This document shows, one piece after another, positions 16,136 to 36,868 of a stretch of 38,488 nt of DNA. The notes beneath the pieces are model-generated. The model was not told where the DNA came from. It worked only from the letters and a program-made list of their open reading frames with translations, and searched no databases. The position numbers and the translations under genes were made by a program. Each line of letters starts with the position of its first letter. Positions within the stretch are counted from its first letter, which is position 1. Origin of the DNA: a virus. Lineage: Duplodnaviria > Caudoviricetes. The stretch is from positions 1 through 38,488 of IMG/VR virus record IMGVR_UViG_3300048855_000191. The stretch is one strand, 5' to 3'.

Positions 16136-16669
16136 ATGGCTGACCCCCGCAAATCCACCACCGCCCTGGTGCTCGAAGCCGTGCAGGACCTGCACAACCA
16201 GGAGCAGATCGTCACGCGCGAGACGCTTGCAGAGCTGACCGGCCTCAAGCTCAGCGTGATCGACGATCGCCTGGGCACGCTCACCGATGACGGCGCGCTC
16301 CTGCGCGTGCAGCGTGGTGTCTACGTGCCGGCCGCGCAGCACCCGCCGGCGCGGCCAATGTCGAAGACCGTGATGCCCGATGGCATGGTCAAGATCGAGA
16401 TCGGCGACGACGTGCTCGCGCTCACGCCGCGCGAGGACCGTGCGCTCGCCAATCTCATGGCCGGCGCGGCAGCGCAGGCGGCAGCGATCGAGACGGGCCG
16501 GAACGCAGCCATCCTGGCGGCCGAGCTCAGCGAAGAGGTGAAACGCCTGCGCCGCCAGGTGTCTGCGCTCGAAGCGCGCATCGATCCCGACCAGGGGCAG
16601 TTGTTTGGCACCCCCTGTAGGGCAGGAAAGTCCGCGGCCAACGGCTCACACTTCGAGCAAGCGGTGTAG
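16136..16669 (+). CDS. Winged-helix DNA-binding protein, candidate late-gene regulator
   Basis: VTRETLAELTGLKLSVIDDRLGTL...LLRVQRGVY; GAGGAG RBS before ATG 16136; last early-region gene before the late promoters. Confidence 0.7.
   Translation: MADPRKSTTALVLEAVQDLHNQEQIVTRETLAELTGLKLSVIDDRLGTLTDDGALLRVQRGVYVPAAQHPPARPMSKTVMPDGMVKIEIGDDVLALTPREDRALANLMAGAAAQAAAIETGRNAAILAAELSEEVKRLRRQVSALEARIDPDQGQLFGTPCRAGKSAANGSHFEQAV
16611..16660 (+). promoter_or_regulatory. Putative late promoter copy 1 (tRNA)
   Basis: CCCCCTGTAGGG-N24-CACACT-N7-A16660. Confidence 0.65.
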
Positions 16670-16736
16670 CTCAGCCAGGTAGAGCAGCAGGTTCATACCC
16701 TGCGTGTCGTCGGATCGAAGCCGGCCACCGCAACCA
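16660..16736 (+). tRNA. tRNA with CAT anticodon, initiator(fMet)-like, CCA encoded
   Basis: Cloverleaf: acceptor AGCGGTG/CACCGCA, D stem GCTC/GAGC, anticodon stem GCAGG/CCTGC with loop TTCATAC, T stem GTCGG/CCGGC, ACCA end. Confidence 0.9.
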
Positions 16737-22507: not shown

Positions 22508-24217
22508 CTAGGTGAAGTCGACCCGCCAAAGATGGGCGGCACGACGCGCCATCCTCTCCTGTCGCGCGTCCAGCTTCGCAGGGGTCCAGTCATCACCGAT
22601 CTCGCCAGGCAAAGCACTGCTCGTTGTGTAGCGGCTTCGACCGTAGGCATCGAGTTTGGTCTGTAGGTCCGCGTTGCCTATGGTCCTGTTCAATGTTGGT
22701 TCCAGCCACGTTAGATTTCCGATGCGGTCGATGTACCGTTCGAACGTATCTCGTGTGAAGGAGGCCTCCCAGACTGCAGTTGGATTGACAGGAAGAATGT
22801 GCTCCACAGTCCCAGGATCAGAGTCTGCATCGCATGCGCGCTGAGAGGCATCTGCTTCGAGGCGCGCGAGGATGTATCTAACCAGTTTGCTTCCCTGTCC
22901 GGTGCTGTCAGGTGCAAAGAATGCAAACTCCTGAGTGAAGCGATCGTCTTCGACATAGACAGAACGCAGTGCCCCAAAGATCTCTCCTGGGGTTTTCAGG
23001 TGGCCCTCGAGGACACCTTTCGCCGCCTCATGAAACACTAGCTCGAGCCGGTTAGTGTTCAGCGCGCTCACCGCGCTATATCGGAAGAGAATCACGACAA
23101 GCATTTTCAGCACGCGGGCGAAATCTGCTTGGTCGAGCCGCTCCCAGGCTGCGAAGACAAGGGGAGTCATCTGCCTCACGCGCAGCACGTTCAGATCCCG
23201 AATGTGAGGTGCACTTTCGCGCCGATCGATCCAATACTGATGTTGAGGGTCGAAGAGCGCAGCAAAAACCTCTGCCCTGCGTTCGAGGGCCTCCAACAGA
23301 TCAAAGGTATCTTGCCCTGTACGCACGCGATCGCGAACAAGCTTGAAAAGGCGTTGAGTTCTCACGCGCGGCAACTCGCATTGCAAGTGGTACCGCAGGA
23401 ACTCGGGAAATCGTTCCTGATGCACCGTAATCATGAGCGATTTCCAGCGACGCTGTAGCGCTTCAAGGTCGGCCGCAGTGCGCAACCTTGAGAAGAGATA
23501 GTTCTTAAGCAGATCTGTAGCGGAGAGCTCTAGCCCTCGCGCATTCAGCGTCTCGAAGACCGTGTACGCATTGAGTTCATCGTCGACGGCGATGCGAATG
23601 AACATGAGCTGGCGACCGGTCGTCTCAGACACCAGGCGCGCCAGCTGCGTCCCGTCAGTGGTGCCGTCTGACCAACTTTCCACCTGGCGCTTGAAGTATG
23701 AGAAGCACTGCCACAGCAATTTGTTGGACTTCGACAGTCCTCGAGGATTGATAGGGGTCCGAAGCTGAACAAGGTAGTCTTGGTAGAAGGCGTTGTCACT
23801 GTCATTCAACGTGAGCTTGCTCGCTTCAACCAATGAAGCGGGGTCTTTCTCGCCAATAAATCTCGCCCGCAATGCAGCAGCTCGCTGCTCGTTGTCGTCG
23901 GCACTGATTCCTTGATCCCTCAGTTGAAGCAATCGCGAGATCACTGCCAAAACCAGCAGGCTCAGAGTTGCGAGGCGCTGCTGCCCGTCAATGACGGCGA
24001 ACTCTCGGTCGGACCGTCCTTCAACCACCAGAGCACCCATGTAGTGCGTGTCCTCAGGACGTTCTGAGAGCTCCTTGAGGTCAGTCCAGAGGTCTTCCCA
24101 TTGCTCTTCGGTCCAAGAATAGTCCCGCTGATATGGCGGGACGGTATATAGGCGTCCATTCCCGATCAGTTCGAGGAAAGTTGAAGTGCCAGTGTTTAGA
24201 AGATTGGCTTTGGCCAT
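22508..24217 (-). CDS. gmrSD: GmrSD-family (DUF262 + DUF1524/HNH) modification-dependent restriction endonuclease
   Basis: PPYQRDYSW, IDGQQRL, FETLNARG, VEHILP and IGNLTWL...N; ATG 24217 with GGAG RBS; lower GC; antisense to the virion genes. Confidence 0.9.
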   Translation of the reverse strand: MAKANLLNTGTSTFLELIGNGRLYTVPPYQRDYSWTEEQWEDLWTDLKELSERPEDTHYMGALVVEGRSDREFAVIDGQQRLATLSLLVLAVISRLLQLRDQGISADDNEQRAAALRARFIGEKDPASLVEASKLTLNDSDNAFYQDYLVQLRTPINPRGLSKSNKLLWQCFSYFKRQVESWSDGTTDGTQLARLVSETTGRQLMFIRIAVDDELNAYTVFETLNARGLELSATDLLKNYLFSRLRTAADLEALQRRWKSLMITVHQERFPEFLRYHLQCELPRVRTQRLFKLVRDRVRTGQDTFDLLEALERRAEVFAALFDPQHQYWIDRRESAPHIRDLNVLRVRQMTPLVFAAWERLDQADFARVLKMLVVILFRYSAVSALNTNRLELVFHEAAKGVLEGHLKTPGEIFGALRSVYVEDDRFTQEFAFFAPDSTGQGSKLVRYILARLEADASQRACDADSDPGTVEHILPVNPTAVWEASFTRDTFERYIDRIGNLTWLEPTLNRTIGNADLQTKLDAYGRSRYTTSSALPGEIGDDWTPAKLDARQERMARRAAHLWRVDFT

Positions 24218-24347
24218 GTTTTTTCTCCGGCGAGGTGAGGTCGGGAGGGATCTGCAAAGGAGCATTTCTCCGTCCAGCATCCGCTCTTTTGGCGATTCTG
24301 CCCTAGGGCGCGACGCACGCGGTCGTGGGGCGATCCGTGGAGAACGA

Positions 24348-24397
24348 CCCCCTGTAGGGTTTTCCGAGTGAACGTGCCCCCGGCACAGTCGCGTCAA
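24348..24397 (+). promoter_or_regulatory. Putative late promoter copy 3 (scaffold-capsid operon)
   Basis: CCCCCTGTAGGG-N24-CACAGT-N7-A24397. Confidence 0.65.
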
Positions 24398-24569
24398 GCG
24401 TGGAGCGAAAGCGAAGCGCGAAGCAGCCCGCTCGTGAGAGCCGGCGCCTCCCCCGAAAGGGCGCGAGGCATTCCCACCTGCTGGAGGTGTACGGGGTAGG
24501 GCTTCGGCCCTGCCCGGTGCTCCAAATGCGGATGTCCCCTGCGGCCACGGCGATATGTGGCGGACGAGC
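24397..24569 (+). ncRNA. Structured multi-hairpin RNA or 5' leader
   Basis: Closing helix TGGAGC/GCTCCA encloses hairpins capped by GTGA, GAAA and TTCG tetraloops. Confidence 0.55.
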
Positions 24570-25619
24570 ATGACGGCAACAACGACCGAGAACTTCTTTG
24601 ACGGCATCGACGGCGCGCTGACGCTGGAGCAGGCTGCCCAGGCTATGGCCTTGGCAGAACAGGGCGATACCGGCGGCAAGCCGGAAGACGGTGGCGCGCC
24701 CGCGACCACCACTGCAACCGACGACAAGGGCCCCGAGAAGACCGAGACTCCCGACAACGGGCAGCCCAAGGCTGACGACAAGGCGACCACCCCCGGCGTA
24801 GACGACGCGGGCACCAAGGACGACGAGACGGGCATCGATCCGTCCAAGGCCGTGGTGCTGGCGCGGGATGGCAAGCACACCATCCCCTACGAACGCCTGG
24901 AGAAGGCCCGCCAAGGCGAGCAGCACTGGAAGGCTCAGGCCGAGGAAGCCCAGCGACAGCTGGTCGATCTCAAGGCGCAGGCTGACGCGCGAGCGGATGC
25001 CGGTCAGGCCCCGACCAAGACCGACAACATGGTTGCCACCGCAGAGGCAGCCATCGAGAAGGGCGTGGACCCGGGCCTGTTCGGTGACTTCTCCGAAGAG
25101 GCTCTCGCCGCTGGCATCGCCAAGCTGGTGCAGCAGCAGGTGGAGGCGCAGGTCGGCAAGGCCGTCGCGCCGCTGCAGGCGAAGCAACAGCGAGACGCTG
25201 CCACGGCCCACTACGAGGCGATCTACAAGGCGCACCCCAACGCTGACTCCATCGTGGAGAGCGCCGAGTTCAAGGCCTGGGTGGAGGCGCACCCGAGCGC
25301 GGTGCGCGACGCCTACTGGAAGCTGTTCGACCCCGCGACGGGCGGGACCGCCGATCAGATCGTCGAGGTGTTCGACGCCTTTACGAAGACGGGCAAAGAA
25401 GTTCCAACGGCCGCGGCCCCTGACAAGGCCGCGGCAAAGGCCGCCGTTGCTTCCGCGCGCGCAGAGCCGCCGCCCAGCCTCACCAGCATCCCTGGTGGCC
25501 GGGCAGACGGGCTCTCGCCGCAAGAGCGCATGGCGAGCATGGGTGGTGACGAGCTGTACGCGGCCATGGAAAACATGAACCCCGCACAGATCGAAGCCTT
25601 TCTGAACAAGCAACTTTAG
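24570..25619 (+). CDS. Probable scaffolding protein
   Basis: Acidic low-complexity N-terminus, DGKHTIPYERL and a coiled coil; lies between portal and capsid. Confidence 0.72.
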   Translation: MTATTTENFFDGIDGALTLEQAAQAMALAEQGDTGGKPEDGGAPATTTATDDKGPEKTETPDNGQPKADDKATTPGVDDAGTKDDETGIDPSKAVVLARDGKHTIPYERLEKARQGEQHWKAQAEEAQRQLVDLKAQADARADAGQAPTKTDNMVATAEAAIEKGVDPGLFGDFSEEALAAGIAKLVQQQVEAQVGKAVAPLQAKQQRDAATAHYEAIYKAHPNADSIVESAEFKAWVEAHPSAVRDAYWKLFDPATGGTADQIVEVFDAFTKTGKEVPTAAAPDKAAAKAAVASARAEPPPSLTSIPGGRADGLSPQERMASMGGDELYAAMENMNPAQIEAFLNKQL

Positions 25620-27000: not shown

Positions 27001-27031
27001 CACCCCTCACGAAATTCACAGGAGGCCAACC

Positions 27032-27580: not shown

Positions 27581-28027
27581 ATGGCCGACAGCCAACTCGT
27601 CGCGGTGACGTACACCGGCACCGAAACGCCTTTCCTGGACCGCATCTACCGCTCGCGGCTGACCTTCGACCCAAACCAGACGCGCCAGGTGCCGGCCGAG
27701 CTCGCCACCAAGTTCCTGCTGCATGCCGACGTGTTCAAGGCGGCCGACGAGAATGCCGCCGCCAACTCGGTCGAGAGGAGCGAGGAGCCTTCCGTGCCGA
27801 AGGATGACACCCAGGAGCAGCTCGAGGGCGCCAAGAAGGCCGAGGACGAGCGGCGCCAGAAGGAGAACCAGCGGTTCGAGTTGCACCAGCAGATCGACAA
27901 GATGGACAAGCAGGCTCTGCGCGACTGGACGAAGACGAAGTTCCAGCAGGATCTCCCGGGCAATCTGGGGGTAGAGAAGATGCGCGATCGCGTCAAGGGT
28001 TTCGTGGACCAGTACGGAGCGCCATGA
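27581..28027 (+). CDS. Hypothetical virion-module protein
   Basis: GAGGAG RBS; C-terminal HeH/LEM-like helical motif (MDKQALRDW). Confidence 0.7.
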   Translation: MADSQLVAVTYTGTETPFLDRIYRSRLTFDPNQTRQVPAELATKFLLHADVFKAADENAAANSVERSEEPSVPKDDTQEQLEGAKKAEDERRQKENQRFELHQQIDKMDKQALRDWTKTKFQQDLPGNLGVEKMRDRVKGFVDQYGAP

Positions 28028-28692
28028 CCCTGCAGGATCTGATGCGGCGCTTCCGCGTCCTCGCCAATGACAAGGTGCAGCCCTATTTCTGGGCCGATGC
28101 CGATGTCAAAGACTGGCTGAACGATGCCCAGGCTCAGGCCGCGGCGCGTGGCCGTCTCTTGCGCGAAGAGGCGAACGCGGCGGTGTGCCGCATTGCGCTC
28201 GTGCCCGGGCAGGCCACGTATCGGCTCCACGCGGTCGTCTTCGAGATCATCAGCCTGCAGCTCATCCCGGCCAACGGAGACCGCGCGCGGGCGCTGCGTC
28301 TCGTGTCGCGCGAGTGGCTCGGTGCCGAGGTGCCGGGCTGGCGTGAGCGCGTCGAGCCCGCCCAGTTTGCGGTTCAGGATGACACCTCGTTGCGGCTCGT
28401 CGGTGAGTTCGAGCTTGGCGATGTGCTCGCGCTGGAATGCTACCGACTGCCCCTGGCGGCCATGGTCGAGACCACCGACAAGCCCGAGATCCACGCCGCG
28501 CACCACGAGCACCTGCTGCTGTGGGCGCTCCACAAGGCATTCAGCATCCCGGACACCGAGGCCTTCGACCCGGCGCGCTCCGACAGGGCCGAAGCGGGCT
28601 TCACCGCGTACTTCGGCCTCATGCCCGATAGCGACCTGCGGCGCATCACGCGCGAGGACGTGCAGCACCACAACCGGGGCATCCTGGTATGA
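28024..28692 (+). CDS. Probable head-tail adaptor protein
   Basis: MTLQDL...FW.D...WLNDAQ and PEIH..HH..LL.WAL..AF pattern. Confidence 0.65.
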   Translation: MTLQDLMRRFRVLANDKVQPYFWADADVKDWLNDAQAQAAARGRLLREEANAAVCRIALVPGQATYRLHAVVFEIISLQLIPANGDRARALRLVSREWLGAEVPGWRERVEPAQFAVQDDTSLRLVGEFELGDVLALECYRLPLAAMVETTDKPEIHAAHHEHLLLWALHKAFSIPDTEAFDPARSDRAEAGFTAYFGLMPDSDLRRITREDVQHHNRGILV

Positions 28693-28910
28693 GCACGACC
28701 CTGGTCCACATCGAGCTCCGCGCCGGCGAAACCGTGCGCATCGGCGACGCGCTCGTGACGCTCACGCAGAAGTCCGGGCAGCGCGCGCGCCTCGCGGTCT
28801 GCGCGGATCGCAGCATCCAGATCGTCCGCCCCGGCGGGCGGCAAACCACCTGCGCGCAGGAGTGCGCTTCTTCTACAGAAGAGGCCTCCCATGGCAAACA
28901 CGCTCTATGA
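28689..28910 (+). CDS. CsrA/RsmA-like small protein
   Basis: LRAGETVRIGD-ALVTL...GQRARLAVCADRSIQIVR aligns by eye with E. coli CsrA RRVGETLMIGDEVTVTV...GNQVRIGVNAPKEVSVHR. Confidence 0.65.
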   Translation: MSTTLVHIELRAGETVRIGDALVTLTQKSGQRARLAVCADRSIQIVRPGGRQTTCAQECASSTEEASHGKHAL

Positions 28911-29298
28911 CGCTGCGCGTCAGCGCTTCCTCGAAGGCCAGTTCAACTGGCTGACCGACACGATCAAGATCATCCTGGTGGACACCGGCGCGTACACGCC
29001 GCAGACCGCGATCCACCAGTACCTGTCGGACATCCCAACGTCCGCGCGCATCTCCGGCCCGGTGACGCTCACCGCGAAGGCAACCACCGGCGGCGCGGCC
29101 GACGGCGCCGACGTGACCTTCACGGCGGTCTCGGGCGCAAGCATCGAGGCCATCGTGATCTACCGCGACACGGGCACCGAATCGACCAGCCCGCTGATCG
29201 CCTACATCGACACCGCGACCGGCCTGCCCATCACGCCGAACGGCGGCGACATCATCGTGACCTGGGACAACGGCACGAACAAGATCTTCAAGGTCTGA
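28891..29298 (+). CDS. Virion structural protein (beta-rich)
   Basis: Strongly biased codons; Thr/Ala/Gly-rich; PITPNGGDIIVTW. Confidence 0.75.
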   Translation: MANTLYDAARQRFLEGQFNWLTDTIKIILVDTGAYTPQTAIHQYLSDIPTSARISGPVTLTAKATTGGAADGADVTFTAVSGASIEAIVIYRDTGTESTSPLIAYIDTATGLPITPNGGDIIVTWDNGTNKIFKV

Positions 29299-31047: not shown

Positions 31048-31774
31048 ATGGTTGCCACCACCAAAGTTTCCTGGTCGGCGAACGCGCGAGTTTCAAGCGT
31101 CGCGTTCGCGAAGGAATGGATCTCGGCCTTCTTCGCAAACCTCGACGCATGCGGGCTGGTGCAGACCAGCGACTCTGGCCAGCTCGATCCTTCGACCATC
31201 GCGGCCTTACCCGCGATCGGCGAATACTTCGGCTACCGCGTGTATCGATTCGACGACGCGCAGCAGAGCAACAAGCCTGTCTTGATCCGCTTTGCCCCCT
31301 ATATCGGCAATTTCGGTGGCGGGCTCAGCGGCGCCGTTGCTCCTGACGATCTCCCGCCCGCTCGACGCGGCGGGCGCGCCAACGGCGGAAGGCGTCGTCA
31401 TCTCGCTTCCGCTCGACGTTTACGACATCAGCGGGAACACCGGCAGCACCGGCATGCTGCTCAAGACCGGGTTCCTGAGCGCGGCGATGGGCGCGTTCAA
31501 CACTGCGCTGACCCCGTTCGTCGGGGGGCAGGCTGCGGCAGCGGCCGGTGGCAACACGCAGATCCAGCGCACCTACTACCTGGCACCTTCGATCAAGGCC
31601 AATCCGGCGCTGACGCTGTACTGGAACACGTCTATGCCCGTTGGCGATCAGTTCGAGGCAGCCGTGGACGGCATCGCGCGCACCTACATCACGCTGGGCA
31701 ACGCCACGGGCGCTCACGCGGACGCTGCGAGCGGCCGCGGTGCCGCGTTCGCCATGCTCTGGGGAGACCTGTGA
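31048..31774 (+). pseudogene. Putative fibre-like protein 2, frameshifted near 31330-31345
   Basis: Protein-like sequence runs in the 31048 frame to about GGLSGA, then continues in the +1 frame (LLLTISRPLD...FAMLWGDL). Confidence 0.65.
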
Positions 31775-32121
31775 GCATCGTTCTCGTGCCCGACCACTGG
31801 CCGCAGGTGCGGGTGGGAAGCATTGCCGTTCTCACTCCCTCGGCGCGCCGGCTGCGCAAAGGCACGGGCACGCTCTCCGGTTCGTTTCCCAACGGCATCA
31901 CATCGGTCGACGGTGTGCCGGCGCCGGCCGAGGTGCGGGTGCTGCTTCATACGCCTTCCGGTGGCTATGGGGATGGTGTCGTGGTTGCGGTCACGCAGTC
32001 GTCGGCCGCGGGCACCTGGAGCGTGAGCGGCCTGCCGCTCGATCTCACCTACGACGTGGTGTGCCGTCACGAGAGCTTCAACGACTTGATCTTGTCCAAC
32101 GTGACCCCGAAACCGATGTGA
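31771..32121 (+). CDS. Small Ig/prealbumin-like beta-sandwich protein 2
   Basis: GTG with GGAG RBS overlapping the upstream TGA; clear paralogy to 30705..31046. Confidence 0.72.
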   Translation: MSIVLVPDHWPQVRVGSIAVLTPSARRLRKGTGTLSGSFPNGITSVDGVPAPAEVRVLLHTPSGGYGDGVVVAVTQSSAAGTWSVSGLPLDLTYDVVCRHESFNDLILSNVTPKPM

Positions 32122-36223: not shown

Positions 36224-36292
36224 AACCTTCTGCCCGGGCCATCCGGGCTTCGATCGCTGCGCAGGAGTGCGGCATAGGACATGGAGTTTCCT

Positions 36293-36868
36293 ATGACCCT
36301 GCGCAACGAACTGGCCGAGGACATCGGCCGCGATCTCTTCGATGTGACCGAGGAGGGCGTCTACTTCCCTCGCCAAGGCGTGCTCGCCCGCGGCGAGTAC
36401 TTCGACCGCATCAACAAGGGCGCGTGGCAGCGCACGAAGAACCTGATCGTGGTCGAGGGCCTGGCGCACATCCTCAATGTCGCGCTGGGCACCACGCCGA
36501 AGCCCGCCGGCTACTTCCTGGCGCTGTTCAGCGGCGCGGCTGCGCCGGTGTCGAACTGGACGGCGGCGAACTTCGCGGCCGTCGCGTCGGAGATCGTCAG
36601 CCTGACCGAGGGCTACACGAGCCCAACGCGGCCGGCGTGGACTTCCGCCAACACCAACACCGGCTCCATCGACAACATGGCAGCCGTGGCGAGCGTGACC
36701 ATCGCGACCGCCGGGCAGTTGAACGTGACCGGTGCAGCCATGCTGACGAACAACGCAAAGGGCGGGACCACCGGTGCCCTGGTGTCCGCGACCAAGTACG
36801 CGGCCGCGCGCGTGTTCCAGAACGGCGACACCTACGACATCGGCTATCGCCTGAGCCTGACCGTCTAG
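36293..36868 (+). CDS. Virion structural protein
   Basis: KNLIVVEGL, YFLALF and EGYTSPTRPAW; GGAG RBS before ATG 36293. Confidence 0.75.
   Translation: MTLRNELAEDIGRDLFDVTEEGVYFPRQGVLARGEYFDRINKGAWQRTKNLIVVEGLAHILNVALGTTPKPAGYFLALFSGAAAPVSNWTAANFAAVASEIVSLTEGYTSPTRPAWTSANTNTGSIDNMAAVASVTIATAGQLNVTGAAMLTNNAKGGTTGALVSATKYAAARVFQNGDTYDIGYRLSLTV

Follow-up and report, generated by a model that had tools for sequence, protein, structure and literature searches.

Phages are known to carry relatives of the RNA-binding regulator CsrA. Phage-encoded RsmA has been surveyed and proposed to act in anti-CRISPR control (PMC8450108, accessible text), and a csrA-like family is annotated as PHROG 8397, "CsrA-like regulator," with members in Bcep22 (gp54), BcepIL02, DC1, JC1 (gp47), GP4 (gp04), Pseudomonas phage 8P, and Hollowayvirus D14S. 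Among GenBank phage records, 56 hold a csrA-like homologue at E ≤ 1, and many of these are labeled CsrA-like. In the accessible portions of the published reports, the homologues of Bcep22, DC1, and GP4 are listed, their hosts are described as lacking csrA, and loss-of-function work is called for (PMC7366521); the JC1 homologue is termed a moron and is represented by one peptide in purified virions (PMC9144972); the CSP3 paper, like the JC1 paper, terms the gene a moron; and the family is mentioned in PMC10269572 and PMC8310193. The word "phage" is absent from the accessible portion of PMC13443453. A search of the openly accessible full-text literature found in the portions available neither a functional test of the csrA-like family nor a target RNA or RNA motif for it. 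In Bcep22-like and F116-like phages the gene carries an annotation but no assigned role, and published accounts treat it as a moron or speculate about effects on the host. The initial annotation of the locus described here had put it forward as an undescribed system; as far as the gene is concerned, this was mistaken, since it is already annotated as PHROG 8397 and discussed in print.

We analyzed a stretch of 38,488 bases (here called the window), a provirus record estimated at 61% complete. It encodes an integrase, RecT, terminase, a P22-like portal, an N4-gp56-type capsid, and an SU10-type adaptor. Its gene order from the portal to the PHROG 8123 gene is the same as in Hollowayvirus D14S, where the gene at the matching place is already labeled "CsrA-like regulator" (order: adaptor, csrA-like, PHROG 644). 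The csrA-like gene of the window (28689..28910, plus strand) encodes 73 amino acids. Its start overlaps the stop of the upstream adaptor gene (28024..28692, plus strand) in an ATGA, so that the two are likely translationally coupled, and its end overlaps the start of the next gene by 20 nt. The gene lies coupled within the late operon and has no promoter of its own. Two likely target genes lie downstream: PHROG 644 (28891..29298, plus strand; homologous to "Tail wing arm, gp31," PDB 9d93, E = 6e-14) and PHROG 8123 (36293..36868, plus strand; homologous to "Structural protein," PDB 26la_U, E = 1.6e-12), the latter with its start placed at 36293 rather than 36281 by comparison with relatives. 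A word-based protein search, which returned seven close matches only, gave a 75% identical protein named from Variovorax paradoxus, suggesting that the host belongs to the Comamonadaceae.

Other features of the window include a tRNA gene (16660-16733, plus strand) ahead of the terminase genes and, between the portal and scaffold genes within DNA of lower GC content, a GmrSD-type restriction-like gene (22508-24220, minus strand; both Pfam domains above cut-off) that is likely a defense moron. An ORF at 27581-28027 (plus strand) shares 34% identity with the C-terminal half of a D14S gene that is labeled "Anti-CRISPR protein." In a tail-fiber-like gene (31048-32121, plus strand), the plausible protein seems to leave the 31048 frame and continue in that of 31292-31774, probably reflecting a frameshift or an assembly error.

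By sequence comparison, the 73-amino-acid protein is a diverged CsrA homologue. The initial annotation had given about 14 identities to residues 1 to 44 of CsrA with one gap, a GET.IGD match, and a retained RNA-binding arginine, and each of these was borne out by a phmmer alignment to wild-type CsrA (5z38_F): 14 of 44 residues were identical (counted by hand), GET.IGD was present, and Arg47 (codon 28827-28829), which is directly followed by Pro-Gly-Gly, aligned with CsrA Arg44. The suggested comparison with PF02599 gave a match (20.1 bits; E = 6e-4) below the cut-off of 27, and the cut-offs of NF002469 (15.8 versus 73) and TIGR00202 (12.3 versus 70.1) were likewise missed. Searched against the PDB as a single sequence, the protein gave a weakly significant best E value of 0.014. 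A family profile built from 18 sequences matched RsmE (E = 7e-9) and CsrA (E = 2e-7), and all 11 sequences that it matched at E ≤ 1 were Csr/Rsm chains. The match to PHROG 8397 itself (E = 1.8e-14) spans residues 7 to 60. Among 1.84 billion representative sequences, the profile matched 1450 clusters at E ≤ 0.001, probably including canonical CsrA. The Arg44 equivalent is kept in 70 of 145 aligned family representatives. Three long proteins match the family profile repeatedly (P0083, 9 times; P0150, 4 times; P0157, 3 times) and may contain tandem CsrA-like repeats.

The modeled monomer is all beta, with a beta core at approximately residues 5 to 48 and a low-confidence tail. To the initial annotation, the C-terminal helix of CsrA appeared to be replaced in this protein; in the model, the tail contains no helix, has a pLDDT below 50 over most of residues 51 to 73, and is predicted to be disordered. 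A Foldseek search with the monomer model returned nothing at E ≤ 0.001 (RsmN/RsmF appeared at E values of 2 to 3), and VIA-align gave a best Z of 2.9; a single chain represents a swapped dimer poorly, and these weak matches are no evidence against a CsrA fold. A dimer model had been suggested as a check. Two copies of residues 1 to 52 were predicted to form a strand-swapped CsrA-type pair with a score of 0.55 (best of three controls, 0.00), passing a mark also attained by 20 of 30 pairs and 1 of 23 single chains among solved proteins. Contact agreement between runs was at least 89%, and pLDDT was at least 77. In CsrA dimers, strand beta1 pairs with beta4' and beta2 with beta5', and the predicted contacts (residues 5 to 10 with 33 to 38' and 16 to 19 with 45 to 46') follow the same pattern. 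The dimer pass may stem from likeness to solved CsrA.

RGGA hairpins, mentioned in the initial annotation with no coordinates, could be located: two exact copies of GCGCAGGAGTGC lie at 28854 and 36259, and with one mismatch allowed the window holds 4 matches versus 1.08 expected (GGA inside ordinary Shine-Dalgarno sequences at 27019 and 27570 was left uncounted). At site 1 (28852..28867, plus strand), hairpin A has the core GCGC-AGGA-GUGC (28854-28865), lies inside the 3' tail of the csrA-like gene 26 nt before the next ATG, and coexists with a predicted stem (28868..28883, plus strand) holding the Shine-Dalgarno sequence of the next gene. At site 2 (36256..36273, plus strand; core at 36259-36270), a second GGA (36277-36279) is positioned 14 nt ahead of the PHROG 8123 start. 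Here the motif also forms the 5' arm of a predicted alternative long stem (36255..36308, plus strand), which pairs the start codon and first codons. The long stem and hairpin A are mutually exclusive, the former being more stable by a predicted 6.7 kcal/mol.

The motif is conserved at the nucleotide level. The conserved "AQEC" in the tail of the csrA-like protein is a trace of GCGC-AGGA-GTGC at 28854. Of 84 distinct relatives, 47 have the motif in one frame of the ORF, 33 in another, and 4 past the stop; this retention in two reading frames and outside the ORF indicates that constraint acts on nucleotides. The same hairpin is present in D14S, 8P, Bcep22, and GP4, and it lies ∼20 to 40 nt upstream of the start codon. 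In Bcep22-like phages the motif, often with a five-base loop, occupies the leader of the major capsid gene, just after a promoter-like sequence recognized by eye. A third site was found in 21 of the 61 distinct relatives long enough to show it, with a loop that is mostly the Shine-Dalgarno sequence of PHROG 11163, a geometry expected for repression; the window, which has no such site, has lost it. Outer stem pairs 5 and 6 covary, with 45 of 65 Watson-Crick compared to ∼22 in shuffles that ignore relatedness (0 of 2000 shuffles); for 28 representatives, the count was 17 versus 8.4 (2 and 0 of 2000 shuffles). Pair 7 covaries weakly and pair 8 shows no covariation; pair 2 is G-U in 64 of 65. The four inner pairs barely vary, being set by the search pattern: the motif-first pattern fixed the stem and the loop GA, and other variants were invisible to the search. 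At gathering scores, Rfam models detected tRNA only in the window and six loci, with no model for the hairpin. Two members of a distant non-Arg clade, L364 (1758-1795) and L366 (1752-1790), carry tandem pairs of the motif before the capsid gene, an arrangement that fits a dimer with two RNA sites. In L388 (G007:C1:20677-20720), the leader arms are near-perfect inverted copies, such that the motif matches on either strand; this is the closed stem that precedes PHROG 8123 taken to an extreme.

Across the sequence collections searched, the hairpin motif and the csrA-like gene travel together; their co-occurrence was among the checks that the initial annotation had suggested. In a protein-first set of 48 loci, 6 lacked a target gene, and 42 of the 42 that held one carried the motif in its leader; this set includes many near-duplicates, and the pattern was loosened after inspection. 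In a motif-first scan of viral contigs, the csrA-like gene lay at most 450 nt upstream in 82 of 96 loci. Ten further loci had a target gene and no adjacent csrA-like gene; nine have the gene elsewhere on the contig, and the tenth is an 8-kb fragment. In metagenomes the gene was found at 52 of 117 motif-first loci, 50 of the 117 being evident chance matches with neither target nor csrA-like gene. Chance matches are also present among many of 48 genome loci, and these were excluded from the folding and association counts. By comparison, a capsid-protein control yielded the gene at 9 of 80 loci. The motif was absent from six relatives whose PHROG 644 gene is 85 to 89% identical and has no csrA-like gene beside it. 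Control records holding a PHROG 644 relative but no adjacent csrA-like gene had that gene nowhere (0 of 20; 0 of 12 near-complete), and the motif occurred in 2 of the 12 near-complete controls (single matches, compared to 4 reversed-pattern matches) versus 23 of 23 gene-bearing genomes, 14 of which had been picked via the motif and 9 reached without it. The genes recurring downstream of the motif are major capsid, PHROG 644, PHROG 8123, and PHROG 11163.

Folding predictions suggest that these leaders have two states. In 87 of 105 distinct leaders, hairpin A was disfavored by more than 1.4 kcal/mol relative to a long stem burying the Shine-Dalgarno sequence or start codon (capsid, 23/23; PHROG 8123, 4/4; PHROG 644, 60/78). 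In 79 of 105 leaders, the ribosome site became cheaper to open by 2 kcal/mol or more once hairpin A had formed. A median opening cost of 5 to 6 kcal/mol was left after its formation. Relative to a null with a shuffled spacer and an intact purine core, 26 of 29 representatives lay above the null mean (median 3.6 versus 0.2); for PHROG 644 leaders as a class, the cost of hairpin A was not above the null (P = 0.52). At window site 2, where the long stem is favored by 6.7 kcal/mol, the opening cost dropped by ∼2.5 kcal/mol upon hairpin A formation, a drop reached by 1 of 12 shuffles. At window site 1 the drop was 0.3 to 0.4 kcal/mol (reached by 7 of 12 shuffles), and the Shine-Dalgarno sequence was paired with or without hairpin A; on these folding results, site 1 was rejected as a switch of this kind.

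Taken together, these data moderately favor a model in which the csrA-like protein is a phage-owned translational switch that binds GCGC-AGGA-GUGC on virion gene leaders and acts, mainly as an activator, late in infection. The free leader would fold into the long stem, with the motif as its 5' arm and the Shine-Dalgarno sequence and/or start codon buried; in most relatives and at window site 2, formation of the small hairpin is computed to open this stem. The protein would clamp the small hairpin via its loop, as RsmE and RsmN do, and tip the leader toward its open form, in the way that CsrA acts on ymdA. Activation is expected because in 87 of 105 leaders the motif is predicted to be hidden in a long stem over the ribosome site. 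With the protein itself a product of the late operon, levels of its targets (in Bcep22-like phages, the major capsid; in F116-like phages, the PHROG 644 and PHROG 8123 proteins) would rise only after it accumulates. At the third site of relatives, binding would repress, since the loop there is itself the Shine-Dalgarno sequence, and one protein could raise some virion proteins while lowering another. Because no switch is predicted at window site 1, control there is more likely exerted via coupling to translation of the csrA-like ORF. In this way the circuit may set virion protein stoichiometry, as the initial annotation proposed.

The arginine implicated in RNA binding appears to vary together with the hairpin loop base. 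Among 91 distinct protein-loop pairs drawn from 161 loci (a profile score of at least 40 bits being required in the motif-first set), 31 combined Arg with AGGA, 2 Arg with another loop, 10 non-Arg with AGGA, and 48 non-Arg with AUGA or AAGA; L100 (non-Arg, AAGA) could not be aligned and was dropped. The 12 exceptions include P. aeruginosa phage D14S, which has Asn and three AGGA sites. The association persisted upon clustering at 70% (10/1/6/25; P = 5e-5), 60% (P = 1e-3), and 50% (P = 2e-3), and position 47 was the best column among residues 5 to 48. In a set of 150 independent representatives, the Arg was missing from all 5 proteins whose tail reads AHEC (AUGA loop) and from 5 of the 15 with AQEC. 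Tree-aware tests, built on the core alone and on the core plus the PHROG 644 protein (64 rows), gave 1 to 2 supported independent pairs, too few to reach significance, and the association may therefore reflect shared ancestry. In the accessible text of structural reports, RsmN-RNA shows the corresponding Arg in contact with N7 of the loop's first G (PMC3791407), and this Arg can also stack or bind backbone (PMC4005645). More than one loop type occurs within some non-Arg genomes, suggesting that specificity was relaxed and not switched.

The distribution of host CsrA bears on this pattern. Most Betaproteobacteria lack csrA, and none of the 9 motif-bearing betaproteobacterial genomes yielded a canonical CsrA; one was present in 9 of 9 gammaproteobacterial genomes and was not found in one unclassified genome. 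Loops were non-GGA in 9 of 9 CsrA-positive gammaproteobacterial genomes, which represent only about two lineages, versus AGGA in 6 of 10 genomes without CsrA (P = 0.011). We tentatively entertain the idea, which we regard as possible but doubtful, that these proteins are a re-coded CsrA whose non-Arg44 variants read AUGA or AAGA, giving a private virion switch insulated from host CsrA. D14S, with AGGA loops in an RsmA-bearing host, is a counter-example.

Two further elements had been assigned to the circuit by the initial annotation. The scaffold-gene leader (∼24390-24572, plus strand), presumed to be its structured leader, and a GGGA hairpin before the capsid gene are both kept in L066 and L072, two fragmentary records that lack the csrA-like gene at this place, and both elements were rejected as circuit parts. 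The scaffold leader, long and strongly folding, is also kept in L029, L071, and L081; it is conserved with or without a csrA-like gene nearby, has no Rfam match at gathering scores, and may be a separate conserved RNA.

The chief rival to an activating switch is that the protein binds the same hairpins and mainly represses, by blocking ribosome entry, stabilizing the closed fold, or hindering coupling from its own ORF. Repression is the usual outcome of CsrA binding (PMC7492729, accessible text), the third-site loop coincides with the Shine-Dalgarno sequence in most of the 21 of 61 relatives that have it, the Shine-Dalgarno sequence at window site 1 is paired in both states, and at site 2 another GGA precedes the start by 14 nt. 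Nevertheless, the free fold at the capsid (23/23) and PHROG 8123 (4/4) leaders is already closed with the loop hidden, so that binding needs the open form, and the hairpin is placed ∼20 to 40 nt ahead of the start codon; we judge a mainly repressive role unlikely. A more distant reading is that the motif acts on DNA or transcription, as an operator for the protein or as a terminator or attenuator hairpin. The inverted repeat that by eye follows shortly after a sigma-70-like -10 element in Bcep22-like leaders and the terminator-like score of window site 1 are compatible with this. However, most sites have no U tract, pair 2 is almost invariably G-U, G-U is accepted in outer pairs, loops are 4 or 5 nt, complementarity to the ribosome-site region exceeds that of shuffles, and CsrA homologues bind RNA, all of which leave this reading with very little weight.

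The two other alternatives concern the protein itself. Its single peptide in JC1 virions (PMC9144972, accessible text) and the position of its gene among virion genes would fit a structural or packaged virion component, with the hairpins read by another factor such as host RsmA; P. aeruginosa phages, whose host carries RsmA, do keep AGGA loops beside a non-Arg protein. Against this, every solved structure that the family profile matched at E ≤ 1 was a CsrA/Rsm chain, several motif-bearing hosts have no CsrA to serve as reader, and the loop base tracks residue 44 of the phage protein, making such a role improbable. Finally, the gene could be a host-directed moron that rewires host mRNAs for metabolism, biofilm, or CRISPR. 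The term moron used in the JC1 (PMC9144972) and CSP3 papers, the proposal of anti-CRISPR control for phage RsmA (PMC8450108), both from the accessible text, and the betaproteobacterial hosts without CsrA lend themselves to this explanation, and the initial annotation had suggested action on host mRNAs. That suggestion found no support: in five host genomes, the exact motif, as distinct from generic GGA hairpins, was barely above control (56 versus 37 matches, prophage copies included). Moreover, the gene lacks a promoter of its own, being coupled within the late operon, and it co-occurs with targets on the phage side. We consider a host-directed moron highly unlikely.

If the activating switch is right, it would be a dedicated phage translational activator on the CsrA fold, timing or balancing virion proteins. 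Its role is directly testable, given a defined target of 12 to 13 nt and a predicted two-state fold. If true, the link between Arg44 and the loop would make natural CsrA variants of altered RNA specificity available for studies of Csr recognition and for use as orthogonal parts.

How does this locus compare with the described systems? The Bcep22-like phages carry their homologue before the major capsid gene, with the hairpin in the capsid leader, whereas that of the window precedes PHROG 644 and PHROG 8123. RsmM and other close phage RsmA copies are, like it, phage-encoded CsrA-family proteins (PMC7366521 and PMC8450108, accessible text), but RsmM is 55 to 63% identical to E. coli CsrA, compared to 25 to 32% for the csrA-like family (PMC7366521, Table 3). 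With CsrA, RsmA, and RsmE (PF02599; RsmE-hcnA, PDB 2jpp; RsmN-RsmZ), the protein shares a homologous beta core, Arg44, and a predicted swapped dimer. It differs in falling below the family cut-offs and in having no C-terminal helix, an element through which RsmE contacts RNA; the positions of CsrA Thr5 and Arg6 are Glu and Leu, and it has a KSG loop. Because the cut-offs are missed and the helix is absent, we file the protein under PHROG 8397, with a mode of action likely resembling that of CsrA on ymdA. On the RNA side, the targets of the CsrA family are CAGGA(U/A/C)G and A(N)GGA loops, and the relatives with five-base loops match the CsrB repeat (PMC7652899, accessible text). Unlike the global CsrA regulon, csrA-like targets look like 1 to 3 dedicated sites per genome. 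The nearest mechanistic parallel is E. coli ymdA, where CsrA binding destabilizes a structure that blocks the ribosome site (PMC7492729 and PMC7652899, accessible text), and alongside it the proposed RsmA activation of phz2. A ymdA-type stem burying the ribosome site is predicted at window site 2 and in 87 of 105 leaders, but not at window site 1. In contrast to ymdA, the reader and the switch are here both phage-borne and are conserved together across hosts with and without CsrA, and activation is here a prediction.
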